Shown one piece after another: positions 2,836 to 28,898 of a stretch of 64,000 nt of DNA. Made by a program: the position numbers and the translations under genes. The first letter of the stretch is position 1; the number at the start of each line of letters is the position of its first letter. The notes under the pieces were generated by a model. That model ran no database searches, had not been told where the DNA came from, and worked only from the letters and a program-made list of their open reading frames with translations. Source of the DNA: a virus (taxonomy: Duplodnaviria; Caudoviricetes); the IMG/VR virus record IMGVR_UViG_3300009671_000009, positions 64,001 through 128,000 of that record. One strand, 5' to 3'.

Positions 2836-5800
2836 TTGAACAGTGTGTTAACTGAAAACGCTCTTGATCTGCTTCGCAAGCGTTACTTTAGGAAGGATCT
2901 TAATGAAACAACATGGTGTCAGCTTGCTGATAGAGTAGCAACTGCCGTCGCCGATGCGGAAACAGATGAACAACTTAAGAAATATTGGAGCGAAAAATTC
3001 TACAACATGATTTACAACCTGGAGTTCCTGCCCAGTACTCCATGTCTGATGAACGCCTATAAAGAATCTCCAGGGCAGTTAAGTTCATGCTTTATCTTGG
3101 ATGTCAAAGATAATATTGAAAGTATCTACGCCGTTAAAGGCGAGTGCGCCAAGATATTCCAAAAGAATGGCGGAGCAGGCCTAAACATGTCAGCGCTCCG
3201 ACCGTCTGGTTCGCAGGTTGAAACCTCTAAAGGTTATAGCTGTGGAGTAGTAGGATTCATGGAAGAATATGATCTTACAGCAGACATTGTAACCAGGAAC
3301 AATACCCGCAAGGGTGCAATGAAAGTTGATCTAAACGACTGGCACCCTGATATCTATGAGTTCATTCATGCTAAGGATGATATTACTAAGTTTAAATGCA
3401 TGAATATCTCAGTAAGCTTATCTGATAAATTCATGCAAGCAGTCCTTGGTAATCAAACCTGGGATCTCAAGTTCCCTGACTACTCCTGGAATAAAGAGAT
3501 TTATGATAACGAATGGTGCGGCGACCTTGATCTTTGGGAAGCCAAAGGATACCCTGTCAGGGTATACAAAACCGTTCTAGCTCGCAATCTCTATTTGGAG
3601 ATCATGGAAAGCGCTTGGAAAACTGGGGAACCAGGGGTTTCTTTTAGAGATGCCATGGATAGGGATAATCCAAACCCACATCTTGGCAAAATAAAAGGTA
3701 CTAATCCTTGTGCTGAATTTACATCTCAGCCCTACAATAGCTGTAACTTGGGAAGTATCAACTTATCCAAAGCTGGCAAGACCAAGGACGAAGTACTTGC
3801 ATGGCTTAAGGTAATGGTGCCGCAAGCTGTAAGATTTTTAGACAACATGATTACAGTTAATAAACTTCCGCTTGCAAAGATCGACAAGTTTACCAAGAGT
3901 GTACGAAGTGTAGGCATGGGGGTTATGGGATTTGCTCACCTGTTGTACAATCTAGGAATTCCGTATAACTCCAAAGAAGGATACGAATTTGCCGACAGAC
4001 TATTTGGATACATTCAAGATTTAGCAACACAGACATCTATTAAACTTGCAGAAGAAAAAGGCGTCTACGACGCATGGACTGGCAGCAATTATGACAAGAG
4101 CGGGATTAAAATCCGTAACAGTAATAGACTCTCGATTGCCCCAACTGGTAGCATCAGTTTTATTGTGAATACCAGTGGAGCAATGGAACCTGTTTTTAGT
4201 TTGGTTATGACCAGACGTACCAATGAAGGATATCTATATCACCAGGTTGACCCAGTGTTGGAATCAGAATTGAAGAAACGTGGACTATATTCTGAATCTC
4301 TACTGCAGAAGATAGCAGACAACTATGGCAGATGTACAGGAATTGCAGAGATACCTGAAGACATACAGAAAGTATTTGTAACAGCCTATGATGTGTCTCC
4401 AGCAGAGCACGTTAAGATGTTGTCTGTGATTCAGAAACACGTAGACTTGTCTGCTTCTAAGTGCGTTGCCAAAGGAACATTAATCCAAACGAACAAAGGA
4501 GTTTTCCCAATTGAAAAGCTTGGCGCTGCTCAAGGAGAAGATGTTTTTGGTGAAGCTCTTTCAGATCTAATGGTTCGAGATCAAAATGGCGATTGGAAAA
4601 AAGTATTAAACCATTATTCTGGTGGCATTAAACCAACCAAGAAAGTTTATCTCGATAACGGACAGGTGTTAGAAGGAACTCATGTTCACAGGATCATGAC
4701 TCGTTCTGGATGGAAGAAACTTTCCGATCTAGCCCAGGGAGATTTGATCAAATGTCGTTTTGCTGATTATAGTCTCGGCGATAGAAAAGGAAGCTTATTA
4801 ATTCAGTTTGAACATGAACTAAACACTAGTGCTAAAGATATAAAGTTCCCAACTGCAATGAGTGAATCTTTAGCGTTGTGGCTGGGAATGTTGGCAGCAG
4901 ACGGTTCGAGTACCGAAAGTTCTGGAGCAGTAGTTCTTACTTGTGCTAATGATGAGGTAGAAAAGCTCTTTTCGTCATTAACATATAAATTATTTGGGCA
5001 ACTGACAAGTGTCGAGTATGATCGGAGAACTGATACAACAAGAGCTTGTAAGTTAACTTCTAGAAATCTTGTAAGATTTGTTCAATCTTTGATAGGAAAA
5101 GGTTGCCGCGATAAGCATATACCAGAGCAGATTTTAAATGGATCTGTGGCCGAGCAAAAAGCTTTCTTGAGAGGACTAACACTTGACGGATACGTTGCGA
5201 AGAGATCTCACAGAAATGAACTTGTAATATACGAGGGATATTCTGAAATCTTATGCGACCAAGCCTTATCGCTATGCTATTTATTAGGAATGGCTCCATA
5301 TAAAAGTACCAAAAAAGTTCCTAGTGGTAGATTGAGCAAGAAAACTTTTGGCTTACATGTTGATTGTAGCTTAATTGAACCACTTGAGACTCATAAACAA
5401 TGTAGATGTGAACCGAAAGACCGAATCGTTGATATTCCAGAGAAACTTAAGATAATTAAGGTATCTGCCAAACATCCAAAATATAATACTTTAAGAACTC
5501 TTAGGCGCAGAAGTTTCACTACAACTGTGGATTCTGTTCTTAATGATTTTGAAGTCGCATACGATATAGATGCTTACTATGTAACTGTCAAATCGGTTGA
5601 AGATGGAGTAGCCGAGGTATATGATATCGAGGTAGAAGATACTCATTCTTACTTGGTTAATGGGATCGTATCTCATAATACAGTCAATCTTCCTAACTCA
5701 GCTACTGTTCAGGACGTAATGGATGTTTACATCGACGCCTGGAAGCAAGGCATTAAAGGAATTACAATCTACCGTGATGGTTGCCGTGACAACCAAGTCC

Positions 5801-18008: not shown

Positions 18009-18135
18009 GGGGTAGATCTAGGATTCGATGGGGTTCGGTGACTGCGTGTAGATGAAAAATGCCCTTGGAGAAAACATCGATAGTAGCCATGTAGCTGGAC
18101 TTTAGACTGGGGTTCGACTCCCCACTACTCCACCA
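18009..18135 (+). ncRNA. ssrA: Minimal tmRNA-like RNA (tRNA-like domain plus helix 2 only, 127 nt)
   Basis: 5' end GGGGTAGATCTAGGATTCGATGGGG and 3' end GACTGGGGTTCGACTCCCCACTACTCCACCA match tmRNA ends. G3:U70 pair, A73, no D-stem. Confidence 0.8.
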
Positions 18136-18532: not shown

Positions 18533-18627
18533 TCTATGGAGATGATTTATTATTATTTGTGCAATTTGATTTTCGTTTTGACCATTGGTACGATGGTTCT
18601 AAATGTCCTGGATTTAAGGAGAAAAAA

Positions 18628-19023
18628 ATGCCAACAAAACAAGTTATTGTTATTAGAAAAGATTTAAATATGCGTAAGGGCAAAATCGCATCTCAGGCAG
18701 CACATGCTTCTATCAAAGTTTTCTTTGATAGAATGGAAAAAGCTCCTTGGGTTTTTCCCGAGCCTTGCTATCTAACAGTAGTTACCGAAGCAATGGCAGA
18801 ATGGATAAATGGATTATTCACTAAGATTTGCGTTTATGTAGAATCAGAAGAAGAACTATTGAATCTTTATAACAAAGCCAAAGAATCAGGAATTCCTTGT
18901 TCTTTAATTCAAGACGCAGGTCTTACCGAATTTGGAGGAGTTCCTACTTATACTTGTATCGCAGTAGGCCCAGACTATAATGAACGAGTAGATGAAATAA
19001 CAGGAGGTTTACCGCTCTTATGA
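18628..19023 (+). CDS. pth2: Peptidyl-tRNA hydrolase, Pth2 type
   Basis: [63 protein letters not shown] before ATG 18628. Confidence 0.93.
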
Positions 19024-19628
19024 ACTTAGTCCCGATGGTAGTTGAACAGAAAGGTCAAGGAGAACGTGCCTATGATATCTTCTCCAGGTTATTAAAAGAT
19101 CGAATTGTATTTATTAACGGCCCAATCTCTATCCAAATGAGCGACTTAATTGTAGCTCAGTTATTATTTCTTGATTCGGAAGAACAAGGGAAGCCTATTA
19201 ATGTATACATTAACTCCCCAGGCGGGGAGATTGTAGGTGGCATGGCGATTCATGACACAATGAAACTGGTAAAGTCGCCAGTTCATACAACCTGCCTAGG
19301 ACTAGCTGCATCCATGGGCGCATTTCTTTTAGCTTCAGGCGACAAAAGATTTGCAACTCCCAATGCAGAAATAATGATACATCAACCAAGTGGTGGCGCT
19401 GAGGGCCAAGCATCTGACATTCTCATTTCAGCCAAGCACATTCTTCAAAACAAAGAAAAGCTGAACAAACTATTATCAGATTATACAAATCAACCACTTG
19501 GACAAATAGAGCGCGACGTTGAGAGAGACTACTGGTTAACACCAGAGGAAGCAAAAGAGTACGGAATTATCGATGAAATTTTAATTCCTCAACCGAAGAT
19601 AGATTATAGAAAGTTTCAAATAAAATAA
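19020..19628 (+). CDS. clpP: ATP-dependent Clp protease proteolytic subunit
   Basis: [44 protein letters not shown]. Confidence 0.96.
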
Positions 19629-21605: not shown

Positions 21606-21714
21606 GAGGAGGAGAATGCCATGAAATTGTAGATTGGCTATACTTAGGTATGTAGACCACCTCCCTAGTGATTTTAATTTGCTGTGTTAAACAAAAAATT
21701 AAAACTAAAGGGAG
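21606..21714 (+). promoter_or_regulatory. Leader peptide with two internal amber codons (MKL*IGYT*VCRPPP*) plus an SD-sequestering hairpin
   Basis: GAGGAGGAG SD, ATG 21621, TAG at codons 4, 9 and 16, then TGA. CTCCC-TAG-tga-TTTTAATTT pairs with AAATTAAAA-CTA-aa-GGGAG, the SD of the ORF at 21724. Confidence 0.75.
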
Positions 21715-21723
21715 AAATGAATT

Positions 21724-22065
21724 ATGTCTATAAAGAAAGAATTCAAAAACTACGTATCTGAACAAATTAAGTCAAACAATTCCTGGTTCGTTAGAGCCAA
21801 TGCTGCCCGCATCGAATCGATGTGTCGGGCTGCGATCAATAGATCATCCTATGGATTTCATTGTGATGACAAACAAGGTCAACCTTCAAACTATCTTGTA
21901 AAAGAAGGCAAGGTTATCTTCATTGAACAAAAGCCAAACACAGAGATTGGTGATGGATGCTGCCACCCGCTCTATCGCTCAATCTTCAACAGAGCTAATG
22001 ACATCATTACTGATGCCAAGAAAAGCTTTGTACCTTCTATGGCTTCGGAGGTAATCAACCAATGA
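21724..22065 (+). CDS. Hypothetical protein, first gene after the amber leader
   Basis: AGGGAG SD; stop overlaps the next start (ATGA). Confidence 0.8.
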   Translation: MSIKKEFKNYVSEQIKSNNSWFVRANAARIESMCRAAINRSSYGFHCDDKQGQPSNYLVKEGKVIFIEQKPNTEIGDGCCHPLYRSIFNRANDIITDAKKSFVPSMASEVINQ

Positions 22066-22343
22066 AGTTATATGTACTAATCGATGAGCAGTATGATGCC
22101 AGCTATCGTGCAGTACAGGGTGCCCATGCGGTTGCGGAGTATTTGCTCCGCAATCCTGGGTCTTCCTGGCAAAATCACACACTGGTTTTTCTAAAGACTC
22201 CGTGTCTTGAAAGATGGACAGATCGTCTTCGTGAAAGCGATAAAGATTTTACATCGTTTGTAGAGCCAGATGTTGGTTACAAAATTACCGCCATCGCTTG
22301 TCTTGATGACGGGTAGATTTTTAGAAAGGTAAAACTAAATTAA
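22062..22343 (+). CDS. Short Pth2-like protein; TAG at 22314-22316 possibly read through to TAA 22343
   Basis: LYVLI...RAVQGAHAVAE...W.N.TLVFL...FVEPDVG.KITAIAC. After the TAG the frame continues IFRKVKLN, resembling a Pth2 C-terminus. Confidence 0.7.
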
Positions 22344-22512
22344 TGTCAGGACACTGGATAACATTAAGAAAACATCATAAAACATATCTAAGTAGCGAAA
22401 AAGATTATATATCTCCATTAATAGGAGTGATATTTGTAGCACTTATCTTGATCTTGCCATTCGTCATGGCAACATTTTTAGGTAAGTAACACGATTAATG
22501 TGATACAGTTTA

Positions 22513-22712
22513 TGGCGGCGGCGTGGATTGGACACGCAAGGAGAACAGCCCGAATTCCCCTGTGGTCAAGACTGTCAACTCCTAAAAGACGATGGCTACC
22601 TAGCCCGTAAGGGGGCTGCAATCAGCTTAATAGCGTTGATCACTACGTAATGTGGGCAAACTCGTCAATAAAAGGTTGGAATCCCTTAGCCAGAATCGAA
22701 GCTGACCCGCCA
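22513..22712 (+). ncRNA. tRNA-like RNA with greatly expanded anticodon domain (~200 nt)
   Basis: Closing stem TGGCGG/CCGCCA, D-like arm GCGTG-GATTGGA-CACGC, AAGG/CCTT stem, T-like arm GCCAG-AATCGAAG-CTGAC. Confidence 0.55.
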
Positions 22713-22737
22713 ATATTTATATTATGGAGGAAAGTAA

Positions 22738-22989
22738 ATGGTTATCTTAGGAAGTAAAGTGAAAGACACACTAACTGGATTCTCTGGTATTGCAACAGCA
22801 AGAACAGAGTGGCTCTATGGGTGTGCTAGAATTTCAATCGAGCCGACTGAGCTAAAAGACGGTAAACCCATCGAAGCCCAATGGTTTGATGAACAGCGCG
22901 TTGAGGTAATTAAAGAATTGGCTCCGACTGTCAGCAAAGATAGTAGCGCTACCAGTGGTGGGCCACAAAGAGATCCTCATTACCGATAA
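22738..22989 (+). CDS. Conserved-looking small phage protein
   Basis: GGAGG SD; LGSKVKD.LTGFSG.ATARTEWLYGC....P..GGP. Confidence 0.75.
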   Translation: MVILGSKVKDTLTGFSGIATARTEWLYGCARISIEPTELKDGKPIEAQWFDEQRVEVIKELAPTVSKDSSATSGGPQRDPHYR

Positions 22990-22998
22990 CAAAAAGGA

Positions 22999-23598
22999 GT
23001 GATTGAAATGGGCGAGATGGCTGATTATTATTTATCAAGTGAAGATGAAAGTATCTACGATGAGCCTCCATATGCTGGTTCGTCAGGCCCTTGCCCAAGA
23101 GATCCCTCGCGGTCATTCCCTTTCTCTACCAGAGAAGAGCCTAGTCGTGCAAAACCAGATCCTCTGGCGCTGTTAAAACAATTAAGACCTATTGTTGTAG
23201 AATCTATAGACTACGCCCAACGTGAGGGTGGCAGTACAGCATACGAAGAGATGTTGTTAAAACAAATAGATACACTGATTCCAAGAAAGGAAGAAACCTT
23301 TCACTGTCCATGTGATTTCACAAAGAGGACAAAGCCCACTGGGGTAAGTGACAAGCAACGGTACGCCATCGAGGTAATTGAAGAGATTACTGGAGATGAA
23401 TTTGAAGGCACTACAAGCAAGGAAGCATGGCTCTTTATTAAAAAACACGAAGGAGCCTATACAGCATATAAAAAGAATAAGAAGTCACCAAGCTGTCGTC
23501 TGAATCGAGTGAGCACATTCGATATTGCAGAAGATCCTAGTGACGATGGTTGTTTTAATGATTACAACGATGATTATCATTTTGATGATATCTTTTAA
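22999..23598 (+). CDS. Hypothetical protein
   Basis: AAGGAG SD; MGEMADY start motif. Confidence 0.65.
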   Translation: MIEMGEMADYYLSSEDESIYDEPPYAGSSGPCPRDPSRSFPFSTREEPSRAKPDPLALLKQLRPIVVESIDYAQREGGSTAYEEMLLKQIDTLIPRKEETFHCPCDFTKRTKPTGVSDKQRYAIEVIEEITGDEFEGTTSKEAWLFIKKHEGAYTAYKKNKKSPSCRLNRVSTFDIAEDPSDDGCFNDYNDDYHFDDIF

Positions 23599-23673
23599 GG
23601 TCAAGTAGTTCAGTGGTAGAACGGAAGCCTCTAAAACTTCATGTCGTGGGTTCAATCCCCACCTTGACCACCA
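23599..23673 (+). tRNA. Amber suppressor tRNA (anticodon CTA)
   Basis: GGTCAAG TA GTTC AGTGGTA GAAC G GAAGC CTCTAAA ACTTC ATGTC GTGGG TTCAATC CCCAC CTTGACC A CCA. Anticodon at 23631-23633; C31-A39 mismatch. Confidence 0.9.
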
Positions 23674-23679
23674 AAACAT

Positions 23680-23713
23680 GTCAGAGTAGCTCAGTCGGTA
23701 AGAGCGGCAGACT
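23680..23713 (+). pseudogene. 5' half of a tRNA truncated at the anticodon loop
   Basis: GTCAGAG TA GCTC AGTCGGTAA GAGC G GCAGA CT abuts the stop of the opposite-strand HNH gene. Confidence 0.7.
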
Positions 23714-24302
23714 AGTTCAGTTGAAATATTCCATTGTCGTATTCCCAGTGACAATTAGGACATAGTGCCATTAAATTGTTTATATCGTTTATTTCAACAA
23801 TTAGAGCATCGTTACTGAATAAAGATACAGGTTTAATATGACATACTTCAGCGAAATGTGAGTAGCCGCATCTTATACACACTAAAGGCTTGCCGCTTGC
23901 TTTATATATTCTATATGCATGTGCTCTAATTATCTTTCTAGCCCGTTCGTATTTGTGTTTATTTAGCATATCGCCTTTTGTTCTATACGGCATTGTGCTA
24001 TGCAACAAACAATCGTCACACTTTTTGTATTTATATGTTCCAGAGTATTGTATTTCTTTACTACAAGTACTACAATATTTTTTAACTTTGTTTCTTGATA
24101 CCCCAGCGTTATTAAAAGACGCAGCACAACTCTGAGAACAAAAATTTTTTCTCTTTACTGCAGCAAGTTTTTGACCTTCCTTTGGTATCATAGGTTTACC
24201 ACAGTTTTTACACAATTTGGGATTTTGCAGGTAAGCGTCTCTTATCTTCTTTGCTTTAGCTTTACCTCCAAAATGCCCACTTTTAGATTTTCCTATTAAC
24301 AT
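23712..24302 (-). CDS. Zn-finger HNH homing endonuclease, inverted relative to its neighbours
   Basis: CKNCG..FCSQSC, CIRCG...EVCHIKP...NDINNLMALCPNCH. GAGGTG SD lies 6 nt before ATG 24302. Confidence 0.88.
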   Translation of the reverse strand: MLIGKSKSGHFGGKAKAKKIRDAYLQNPKLCKNCGKPMIPKEGQKLAAVKRKNFCSQSCAASFNNAGVSRNKVKKYCSTCSKEIQYSGTYKYKKCDDCLLHSTMPYRTKGDMLNKHKYERARKIIRAHAYRIYKASGKPLVCIRCGYSHFAEVCHIKPVSLFSNDALIVEINDINNLMALCPNCHWEYDNGIFQLN

Positions 24303-24399
24303 TATAACCACCTCACTGTTATTATATGGTGGTTACTTGAACATGATAGTCAAAATATCAAATAATGTTTCAAGACGATGTTCTATTAAATAGTTAAAT

Positions 24400-24656
24400 A
24401 GCTTGGGTGGCGGAATAAATAGCTAGGCGCATGCGTGCAAATAGCTAGGCTTGTAATGCCAGTAGACGCTTAAACGGTAGACAGGATAGGGGAAGTTGCC
24501 CTCTAATTAGGTGGGAGCGTGGTGCAAGCTCCATAATTGCCGAGAAACGATAACCGTGCGCTTTTGAGTACCACACACTCCTCGCAAGAGTAGCAGCATA
24601 GTAGCTTGCACGGTTGAAATGCCTGTCATGTGAGGTGAAAATCCTCACCCCAAGCT
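24400..24656 (+). ncRNA. tRNA-like RNA with expanded D-loop and anticodon domain (~255 nt)
   Basis: AGCTTGGG/CCCAAGCT acceptor-like stem, TG-GCGGAAT...GTAGACGC D-arm ends, GACAGG/CCTGTC stem, GTGAGG-TGAAAAT-CCTCAC T-like arm. Confidence 0.65.
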
Positions 24657-24664
24657 TATAATTT

Positions 24665-24759
24665 TGCTGGCAAAACACACAAAGGGAGCGGTTAGCTATA
24701 GTAGACCACAAAGTGCCGCGGTGATGATGGAACCCTAAAGAGCAAGCCGTGGGCCAGCA
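24665..24759 (+). ncRNA. Candidate small structured RNA (~95 nt)
   Basis: TGCTGGC/GCCAGCA closing stem, CCGCGGT/GCCGTGG inner stem, followed by a T-tract. Confidence 0.4.
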
Positions 24760-25175
24760 TTTCTTTTTTTAAAGGTGATTTATTTGAATCTTAAACCAGA
24801 CATAAACTTTCTGTTTGATGTAGATGATGTGGAATCGCTTAGAAATCTGTATGATGATCTTGTAGATGATCTTAGCAATCTATATCGTCCTATAGGAAGT
24901 GACTGGGCTAAAGACAAAAATAAAAGGCTATGGGATATCATTCATCCCTACTTGGTGATTCGTGGATACAAATATTCAATAGAAAACAAGGTGTGCCAAA
25001 TATACAAGAAGTTATACGAAACTAACTCTATATAAAGAGAGGGTATTACAATGAACGAACTTATAAATACAGTAGTAGCAAGCGTTCTAGGAGGACTTTG
25101 TTTTGTAATACTATTAAAGCTTATCGATTGGGCTGAAGTTTTTGTATGCTGGGCTCGTCATAAGTTACATAAAGA

Positions 25176-28241: not shown

Positions 28242-28277
28242 ATAGATAGAATCTCACATAAAGGAGAAATGATTTAG

Positions 28278-28898
28278 TTGAACGAAAATCTGTACAAGAA
28301 ACTGGCCCTGGTGAAGAAAAAGCTAGGCGATGTTCCTAAAACAGGCTGGAATGATTTCCAGAATTACGCTTATCACACAGAATCTGACGTTCTTAGCGCA
28401 TTAAAACCGCTATTAGATGAAGTTGGTCTGGACATTATCCCGAGTCTTGATTGGGATCACAGCGATAAGTTGCCTCCGATTTACCGTGAGGGAGATATCA
28501 CCACTGTGTTAACGAAGTACACTATCGTTGACAGCGATACTGGTGAAAACTTTGTCTGCTATTGGGCAGGCCAAGGACAAGACAAAGCCGACAAAGGCGG
28601 CAACAAAGCCTTTACTTCAGCTGGTAAGTATTTCTTAATCAAGCTGTTCAGAATCGCAACCGATGAAGATGCAGATAAAGAAGGTGCTGTTAATACCCCA
28701 CCTGCCAGGACTTCTACTGTAGCTGCACAAAATGCCCGTGGACATGCATCCGCTGCTGCTCCATTTAGTCCTGTTACAAGTGGAGATACATGTAAATCCT
28801 GTGGTAAATCAGTGCCACCTGGAGTTGCAAGCTTCTCTAAAAACAAACATGGCGATATCTACTGCATGGATTGCCAAAAGAAAGTCGCAAAAGGTTAA
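28278..28898 (+). CDS. ERF-family ssDNA annealing protein with C-terminal Zn finger
   Basis: LYKKL..V...VPKTGWNDFQNYAY, GQGQDKADKG..KA.T.A.KY, CKSCG...YCMDCQ. Confidence 0.85.
   Translation: MNENLYKKLALVKKKLGDVPKTGWNDFQNYAYHTESDVLSALKPLLDEVGLDIIPSLDWDHSDKLPPIYREGDITTVLTKYTIVDSDTGENFVCYWAGQGQDKADKGGNKAFTSAGKYFLIKLFRIATDEDADKEGAVNTPPARTSTVAAQNARGHASAAAPFSPVTSGDTCKSCGKSVPPGVASFSKNKHGDIYCMDCQKKVAKG

Follow-up and report, generated by a model that had tools for sequence, protein, structure and literature searches.

A candidate leader gated by UAG read-through upstream of a mini Pth2-like gene and tRNA(CUA) in a large phage

The leader, its hairpin and the A-B operon

The complete 224,466-bp virus record IMGVR_UViG_3300009671_000009, which has direct terminal repeats, 24 tRNA genes and a G+C content of 40%, contains a short open reading frame (ORF) with in-frame TAG codons, the leader, upstream of a two-gene operon (genes A and B) and a tRNA with anticodon CUA, tRNA(CUA). 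The stretch analyzed here, the window, comprises 64,000 nt (bases 64001-128000 of the record), and coordinates refer to it unless a contig is named. The leader lies behind a strong Shine-Dalgarno (SD) sequence, and its frame reads Met-Lys-Leu-TAG(21630)-Ile-Gly-Tyr-Thr-TAG(21645)-Val-Cys-Arg-Pro-Pro-Pro-TAG(21666)-TGA(21669). Gene A overlaps gene B (ATG 22062) by ATGA, and the pair was kept in all of the close-relative contigs (L001-L005, L013-L015, L017, and L018). The features of the locus were as follows.

21606-21614, + strand: leader SD, GAGGAGGAG, 6 nt before ATG 21621 (sequence read directly)
21621-21671, + strand: leader ORF of 15 codons (sense or TAG), terminated by TAG and TGA
21630-21632, + strand: first in-frame TAG (codon 4), next base A; codon 3 in L002, L001 and L018, TGG in L003/L004
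21645-21647, + strand: second in-frame TAG (codon 9), next base G; invariant in five close variants
21654-21665, + strand: Arg-Pro-Pro-Pro codons, the last two Pro codons forming the anti-SD CCUCC (sequence, folding and comparison)
21661-21714, + strand: predicted hairpin sequestering the SD of gene A (folding; same geometry in relatives)
21724-22065, + strand: gene A, 113 aa (homologs P0001-P0004 plus L018 and L015)
22062-22343, + strand: gene B, 84 codons, TAG 22314-22316, 8 codons, and TAA 22341-22343 overlapping the next ATG
23599-23673, + strand: tRNA with anticodon CUA and encoded CCA (ARAGORN and Rfam tRNA, 68.5 bits)

A sequence-only reading of this DNA had claimed a strong SD, an ATG at 21621 followed by in-frame stops that are all TAG and are backed by a TGA, a hairpin burying the SD of the gene at 21724, and a complete tRNA with anticodon CTA. 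The first two were found in place, the tRNA was confirmed by both ARAGORN and Rfam, and the hairpin proved real when its pairing and free energy (dG) were computed. In its lower stem, CUCCCU (21661-21666), which consists of the last Pro codons and the terminal TAG, pairs with AGGGAG (21709-21714), the SD of ATG 21724; the upper stem is a 9-bp A/U helix (21672-21680 with 21696-21704). The predicted dG was -17.3 kcal/mol, with a z-score of -4.2 relative to dinucleotide shuffles, and the wider 165-nt region around the hairpin gave a z-score of -3.2. No Rfam family was found over the leader or hairpin, even at E <= 5.

The same reading had held that the phage otherwise uses genetic code 11, and this was borne out. 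Long ORFs under code 11 covered 0.9-1.0 of most 10-kb bins of the genome, and the genome-wide gain in ORF cover from reading TAG as sense was no larger than that from reading TGA as sense. Of the 301 genes in a simple set, 57 ended in TAG, mostly with short in-frame extensions, which argues that TAG is an ordinary stop in this phage; neither coding density nor the count of TAG-ending genes revealed a recoded region in the 224-kb genome. Of the properties that mark stop-codon-recoded phages, a phage-encoded suppressor tRNA(CUA) was present, whereas in-frame TAGs in many genes together with low code 11 density were not found. On either strand of the 224-kb genome, a search pattern combining an SD, an ATG, an early TAG and a late Pro-Pro matched this leader only, and its features are therefore not attributable to chance. 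A genome-wide scan for other gene starts of the form ATG-x-TAG returned nothing convincing. A 206-codon ORF that starts with TTG is directly preceded by an in-frame ATG-ATA-TAG (28269-28898), but this TAG is followed by T, unlike those of the leaders, so that it is probably a chance occurrence.

Conservation of the leader frame and hairpin

The leader, including its SD-like purine run, was kept in every relative that has the A-B pair. Five close variants and one distant variant all retained the SD, ATG-AAR, in-frame TAG, Pro-Pro and a stop, with one or two in-frame TAGs remaining in each relative's leader and a purine as the base after each of them. In L002/L013/L014, L001 and L018 the frame reads Met-Lys-TAG, four or five codons, TAG, (Val/Ile)-(Cys/Tyr)-Arg-Pro-Pro-Pro, and TAA. 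L003/L004, in which TGG replaces the first TAG, kept the second TAG and have three codons beyond Pro-Pro. The more distant L015/L017 leader has 19 codons, TAG, and 12 codons ending in Ala-Pro-Pro-TAA, so that the first TAG is codon 20 in L015. The close variants differ by two indels, both of 3 nt, and their substitutions are either third-position synonymous changes (in Gly, Thr and Pro codons) or conservative replacements (Val/Ile, Tyr/His/Phe, Cys/Tyr). Taken together, the 3-nt indels and the synonymous or conservative changes imply a translated frame, which is possible only if TAG is read. Scanned for as an exact match, the conserved leader block was absent from viral_contigs, and in metagenome contigs there were only chance matches in unrelated genes.

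Two further candidates around the leader were dismissed. A sigma-70-like promoter match at 21616-21644 was dropped, its second hexamer changing at positions 1 and 6 in relatives, and at the symmetric positions of a palindrome around the second TAG every one of the four base combinations occurred, so that neither an operator nor a helix is supported.

A search of IMG/VR with an alignment of B recovered 80 loci from large phages at 37-51% identity, many of them near-identical to one another and representing approximately 18-27 independent lineages. Gene A was absent from these distant loci, where a small gene, X, sits 5' of B instead. Just upstream of X, 44 of the 80 loci have a leader consisting of Met, 1-6 codons, TAG, 3-10 codons, Pro-Pro, and a stop; in the other 893 kb scanned this pattern occurred 8 times, a background of 0.008 per 900 nt. 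We then compared 27 distinct leaders in which an ATG and an early TAG are followed further on by CCN-CCN-stop. In 27/27 the Pro-Pro-stop was in frame with the ATG and TAG; none had it in either of the other two frames. The base following the first TAG was always a purine (A in 15, G in 12), and the terminal stop was TAA in 22, TGA in 3 and TAG in 2. Pro-Pro before the stop was the most conserved peptide feature of the class. In two loci (L055 2590-2640 and L095 2582-2650) the leader has two Pro-Pro units, the first followed by TAG and a purine and the second by TAA, as if two successive gates were present. A recoding estimate from the 6-kb loci was too noisy and was not used.

These comparisons bear on two explanations that assign no role to UAG read-through. 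According to the first, the UAGs are real stops, the leader acts like a lambda bar minigene that releases short peptidyl-tRNAs before a Pth-like gene, and conservation downstream reflects RNA structure only. Lambda bar minigenes are likewise phage elements with a strong SD, an ATG, one or two codons, a stop and a link to peptidyl-tRNA hydrolase; relatives of the leader read ATG-AAG-TAG behind a strong SD, the operon encodes a protein of the Pth2 fold, and the phage also has a full PTH2 gene. In a bar-type minigene, however, nothing functional lies in frame past the stop, whereas here the frame beyond TAG is conserved: Pro-Pro-stop is in frame with TAG in all distinct leaders, indels of 3 nt and synonymous changes maintain the frame, L003/L004 have TGG for the first TAG, L015 has its first TAG at codon 20, and TAG appears to be decoded in gene B of the same operon (see below). 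We therefore regard the minigene explanation as very unlikely. The second explanation, in which the TAGs have no regulatory role and are either chance features or left over from a TAG-recoded ancestor, draws some support from B homologs in recoded phages such as Lak that carry an in-frame TAG or TGA. Against it, a TAG at codon 2-8 of a leader of about 10 codons recurs in dozens of lineages, far above any codon frequency, while the terminal leader stops avoid TAG, and no other in-frame TAG was found in this genome by coverage, TAG-ending genes or the ATG-x-TAG scan. This explanation appears highly improbable.

The spacer hairpin was also compared. Diverged upper stems could not be aligned using MAFFT and RNAalifold since their sequences are unrelated, and each sequence was therefore folded on its own. 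In each of six lineages the last codons of the leader were predicted to pair with the SD of the next gene below an upper stem of 9-14 bp, with dG values of -15 to -25 kcal/mol and z-scores of -2.8 to -7. The upper-stem sequences were unrelated between the six lineages; as predicted by folding, the pairing is conserved while the sequence is not. In most of 27 distinct leaders, among them those of the window clade, the spacer folded into a strong hairpin, the bases of Pro-Pro and the stop pairing with the SD of the next gene or, in leaders without an SD for that gene, with its AUG instead.

Conservation of the hairpin is relevant to a third explanation, in which translation of the leader does continue past UAG, but the peptide itself is the product, or control acts not by opening an SD hairpin but through early release at UAG, which would expose naked RNA to Rho or RNases and so cause transcriptional polarity or decay. 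A synthetic amber-in-leader switch does act through an unmasked rut (Rho utilization) site (PMC6412442). The leader and gene A were also detected at 100% identity in four bioreactor metatranscriptome runs, at an RNA contig depth of 18-85 compared to 2-8 further downstream; this difference, which is weak because it comes from contigs and not reads, would fit Rho or decay, and it hints only that leader-A RNA is abundant, with no bearing on translation. In three of the four runs the higher-depth contig over the leader and gene A (21619-22184) ended at 22122-22184, just inside gene B, and was followed by lower-depth contigs. That end could mark where transcripts stop or are processed, or could come from the assembly, and we give no weight to contig ends or to uncovered parts. 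A hairpin between the leader end and the SD or AUG, kept across otherwise diverged lineages, would not be needed by pure Rho-dependent or decay control, and apart from Pro-Pro the peptides are too variable to be a product. We consider this third explanation unlikely.

The tRNA, gene B and gene A

A tRNA(CUA) downstream of gene B was also found in L001, L013 and L015. Among the 80 distant loci it lay downstream of B on the same strand in 68, at a distance of 1-1615 nt (mostly < 430 nt), and CUA was the commonest anticodon (72 of 576 tRNAs). These tRNAs are diverse, with 44 distinct sequences including that of the window, several of which have long variable arms.

Linkage of this kind favors the tRNA as the input to the leader over a sensor of release factor 1 (RF1), which would be on when host RF1 is depleted or inhibited in infection and in which the tRNA would be a helper. 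There is a precedent for release-factor sensing by way of an in-frame stop in prfB, the gene for RF2, which is autoregulated by +1 frameshifting at an in-frame UGA. As proposed for the leader, an early in-frame stop in prfB reports the activity of the machinery that reads that stop; prfB, however, escapes by a +1 frameshift within its own gene, whereas here read-through by a dedicated tRNA in a separate leader would control downstream genes. Since read-through of UAG depends on the ratio of RF1 to tRNA, sequence cannot distinguish RF1 sensing from tRNA sensing, but the tight and widespread linkage is to tRNA(CUA), and an RF1 sensor seems to us distinctly improbable.

The ORF of gene B has a TAG after codon 84 (codon 85) in 5/5 close lineages. 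The 8 codons that follow are conserved (of the type Ile-Phe-Arg-Lys-x-Lys-Leu-Asn) with synonymous differences, end in TAA, TGA or TAG, and align with the C-terminus of distant homologs that have a sense codon at the TAG site (Lys in L015; mostly Glu, Arg or Lys in others). The conserved extension argues, independently of the leader, that TAG is decoded in this clade. The description of gene B as Pth2-like held for its fold but not for its Pfam score: no Pfam match was obtained at E <= 0.1, the gathering cut-off of PTH2 (PF01981) was not reached, and the PHROG match was weak (phrog_3668, 'hydrolase', 3.5e-5). The gene B family profile matched a peptidyl-tRNA hydrolase in PDB (E 1.2e-3), and a 40%-identical homolog carries PF01981. 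A model of the 93-residue read-through product (predicted local distance difference test, pLDDT, 92.3) has the Pth2 fold, its top PDB matches being almost all Pth2 (2zv3, 1xty, 3erj, 1q7s) at template-modeling (TM) scores of 0.7-0.8. The Asp of the Pth2 D-A-G motif has a near-invariant Asp as its counterpart in the alignment, and the position of the Pth2 Lys is occupied by Arg. A true PTH2 gene (PF01981, 116 bits) is located separately at 18559-19023, so that the phage has both a full Pth2 and a mini Pth2-like gene.

Homologs of gene B, which are more numerous than those of gene A, occur in Lak megaphages and in the cultured Stenotrophomonas phages CM1 and RAS14. In RAS14 (L101, OP752703.1; 1941-2800), a protein annotated as hypothetical ends in a Pth2-like domain, and its ORF extends 5' of the annotated GTG start to an in-frame ATG-AAG-TAG behind an SD-like AAAGGA; the true start may be gated by UAG at codon 3. 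In L054 and L078-L080 (near 3000-3100) a TGA breaks the B homolog exactly at the position of a Trp conserved in relatives, and a tRNA(CUA) lies 3' of the gene; it may be that these phages have recoded TGA and carry an amber suppressor as well.

Gene A is far more restricted. Only four clusters of homologs, at 65-99% identity, were found among 5.8 billion proteins, and no relatives were found in viral_contigs. It matched no Pfam or PHROG family, and comparison of its AlphaFold2 (AF2) model (pLDDT 88.7) with PDB using Foldseek and VIA-align gave no fold match (best Z 5.8, within noise). An Atlas search with gene A returned chance-level leads only. Gene A and gene X have no detectable relation (hhalign probability 0.5%).

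Several other elements lie nearby. A ~250-nt GC-richer, ORF-free stretch (22490-22737) separates the small ORF after gene B from the next gene; its first bases recur directly 3' of gene B in L002/L013, and no Rfam family matched it even at E <= 5. Seven bases 3' of tRNA(CUA), in the region 23681-24770, is an apparent further, partial tRNA, a 5' half comprising the acceptor, the D arm and the beginning of the anticodon stem, which breaks off at the start of an HNH endonuclease gene (23712-24311, minus strand, PF13391). This gene is adjoined by a ~450-nt GC-rich, ORF-free stretch (24312-24770). No 3' half of the partial tRNA was seen, Rfam gave no match in 23681-24770, and the GC-rich stretch matched no family at E <= 5. 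Among the tRNA genes and adjoining the true PTH2 gene is an Rfam match to transfer-messenger RNA (tmRNA) at 18009-18135, with 60.6 bits (above the gathering score) over only 127 nt, far below normal tmRNA length. A 202-aa ORF overlaps the 3' end of the PTH2 gene (18559-19628), and its L013/L014 counterpart carries the CLP_protease family.

A proposed read-through-gated switch

We propose that the leader is probably a translational attenuator of the A-B operon that is gated by UAG read-through and takes the phage tRNA(CUA) as its input; most of the remaining probability we assign to variants of the same gated idea. By default, the SD of gene A would be locked in the hairpin. Ribosomes would start at the strong leader SD and be released by RF1 at the UAG of codon 4 or 9, approximately 30 or 15 nt short of the hairpin; because a ribosome at 21630 cannot reach the base of the stem at 21661, the SD of A would stay paired. 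When tRNA(CUA) outcompetes RF1, both UAGs would be read and ribosomes would arrive at Arg-Pro-Pro-Pro and the stop, which are located on the 5' hairpin arm. Since ribosomes are slow both to form peptide bonds and to terminate after Pro-Pro, they would pause there and so keep the SD of A free. Gene A would then be translated and B would follow through the ATGA coupling; the last conserved segment of B would be made only after a third read-through, at codon 85, such that the operon would be made in full only while amber suppression is active. With two serial UAGs in the leader and one more in B, the response should be sharper, as it is in engineered switches with multiplexed UAGs. Multiplexed UAGs and a purine in the 3' context are known to sharpen or favor suppression, and termination after poly-Pro is reported to be inefficient (PMC6412442).

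The interpretation put forward in the sequence-only reading, a leader gated by UAG read-through, was thus supported in its main lines by the comparative test: leader TAGs, a terminal Pro-Pro-stop, anti-SD pairing and tRNA(CUA) all co-occur in homologs, both in the close clade and in dozens of distant loci. The comparison shows a leader frame that continues past TAG, decoding of TAG in gene B, a conserved hairpin geometry, and linkage of the tRNA to B. We infer the ribosome stall, the opening of the hairpin as the on-step, the direction and timing of control, and the function of the operon as a 'peptidyl-tRNA rescue module'; that A and B handle a product or by-product of the suppressor tRNA is our guess. 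With respect to the proposed RPPP stall motif, Pro-Pro-stop is conserved across the class and the Arg is not.

A number of observations weigh against the switch as proposed. In the comparative data, near-identity among the distant loci means that the sample amounts to some 18-27 independent lineages rather than 80. In the scan, 36 of the 80 lacked the Pro-Pro form of the leader, some of them having TAG leaders without Pro-Pro, and 12 of the 80 had no same-strand tRNA(CUA) downstream, although three of these 12 have one upstream. The Arg of RPPP is often absent across the leader class, Lys-Pro-Pro, Val-Pro-Pro and Asn-Pro-Pro having been seen. As to the mechanism, CCUCC in this frame encodes Pro-Pro and is confounded with the anti-SD, so that a stall need not be selected, and elongation factor P (EF-P) may relieve a plain PPP pause. 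Two serial UAGs would make full read-through rare unless suppression is efficient; with an efficient suppressor, the 57 phage genes that end in TAG would be extended too, as would those of the host.

The closest likeness is to erm/cat attenuation, in which a drug-bound ribosome held in a short upstream ORF (uORF) frees the SD of the next gene from a hairpin. The locus described here has the same arrangement: the regulated gene is preceded by a short uORF that has its own ribosome-binding site, and the SD or start codon of that gene is paired in a hairpin with its 5' arm at the end of the uORF. The input of erm/cat attenuators is the drug-bound ribosome, whereas the input proposed here is passage of in-frame UAGs as determined by suppressor tRNA versus RF1.

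A second group of relatives is formed by the regulatory arrest peptides ApdA, ApdP, ApcA and SecM, which have RAPP/RGPP (RxPP) motifs (PMC7897499, PMC10951233, PMC12992588). RxPP with Gly, Ala, Ser or Pro at x is a reported arrest core; RAPP-type arrest resists EF-P, and Pro at x is reported to be partly permissive for arrest (PMC12992588). Like the window leader, these peptides have a C-terminal Arg-x-Pro-Pro core upstream of a regulated gene, and while the window has Arg-Pro-Pro-Pro, the leaders of some relatives have Arg-Gly-Pro-Pro or Arg-Ser-Pro-Pro. The arrest peptides differ in being longer, in belonging mostly to secreted or membrane proteins with a role in monitoring Sec/YidC, and in having an Arg that cannot be replaced; the leaders described here have 8-20 codons, frequently dispense with Arg, and would use a stop codon as the gate.

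Stop-codon-recoded phages encode suppressor tRNAs, and their in-frame stops have been proposed to delay expression until the tRNA is made (10.1101/2021.08.26.457843). In those phages recoding extends across many late genes and the module consists of tRNA, synthetase and release factor (10.1101/2021.08.26.457843), whereas here the genome uses the standard code and TAG gating would be confined to one leader and one gene. That report, by Borges et al., contains no mention of a hydrolase or of a leader. Neither it nor the theta-ribozyme paper mentions a Pth2-suppressor pairing or a leader gated by a suppressor tRNA, and our literature search found no publication on a natural leader of this kind or on such a pairing. 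Synthetic amber-in-leader switches for unnatural amino acids act on transcription via a rut site, and several UAGs raise their on/off ratio (PMC6412442). As proposed for the present leader, a UAG in their leader makes downstream expression depend on charged tRNA(CUA); they are engineered and transcriptional, whereas the leader described here is natural and built around an SD hairpin.

More tentatively, and with considerable doubt, the leader, the mini-Pth2 and tRNA(CUA) may form a self-referential code-switch circuit of many large phages, including Lak and the cultured Stenotrophomonas jumbo phages, with the mini-Pth2 as a dedicated partner of amber suppression. In such a circuit the mini-Pth2 would recycle or proofread the suppressor tRNA, or tip its competition with RF1, and because synthesis of the mini-Pth2 itself needs read-through, there would be positive feedback and a sharp commitment to a UAG-reading state. 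Work on recoded phages asks how and when a phage switches a standard-code cell to the reading of a stop codon, and the circuit, if true, could mark an intermediate stage between a standard-code genome and a recoded one. The small, so far unannotated Pth2-fold protein would then stand out as the most constant companion of phage tRNA(CUA). If our reading of the leader is correct, this compact element of approximately 110 nt, which resembles switches that synthetic biologists had to engineer, would be the first natural regulatory element to read out suppressor-tRNA activity.

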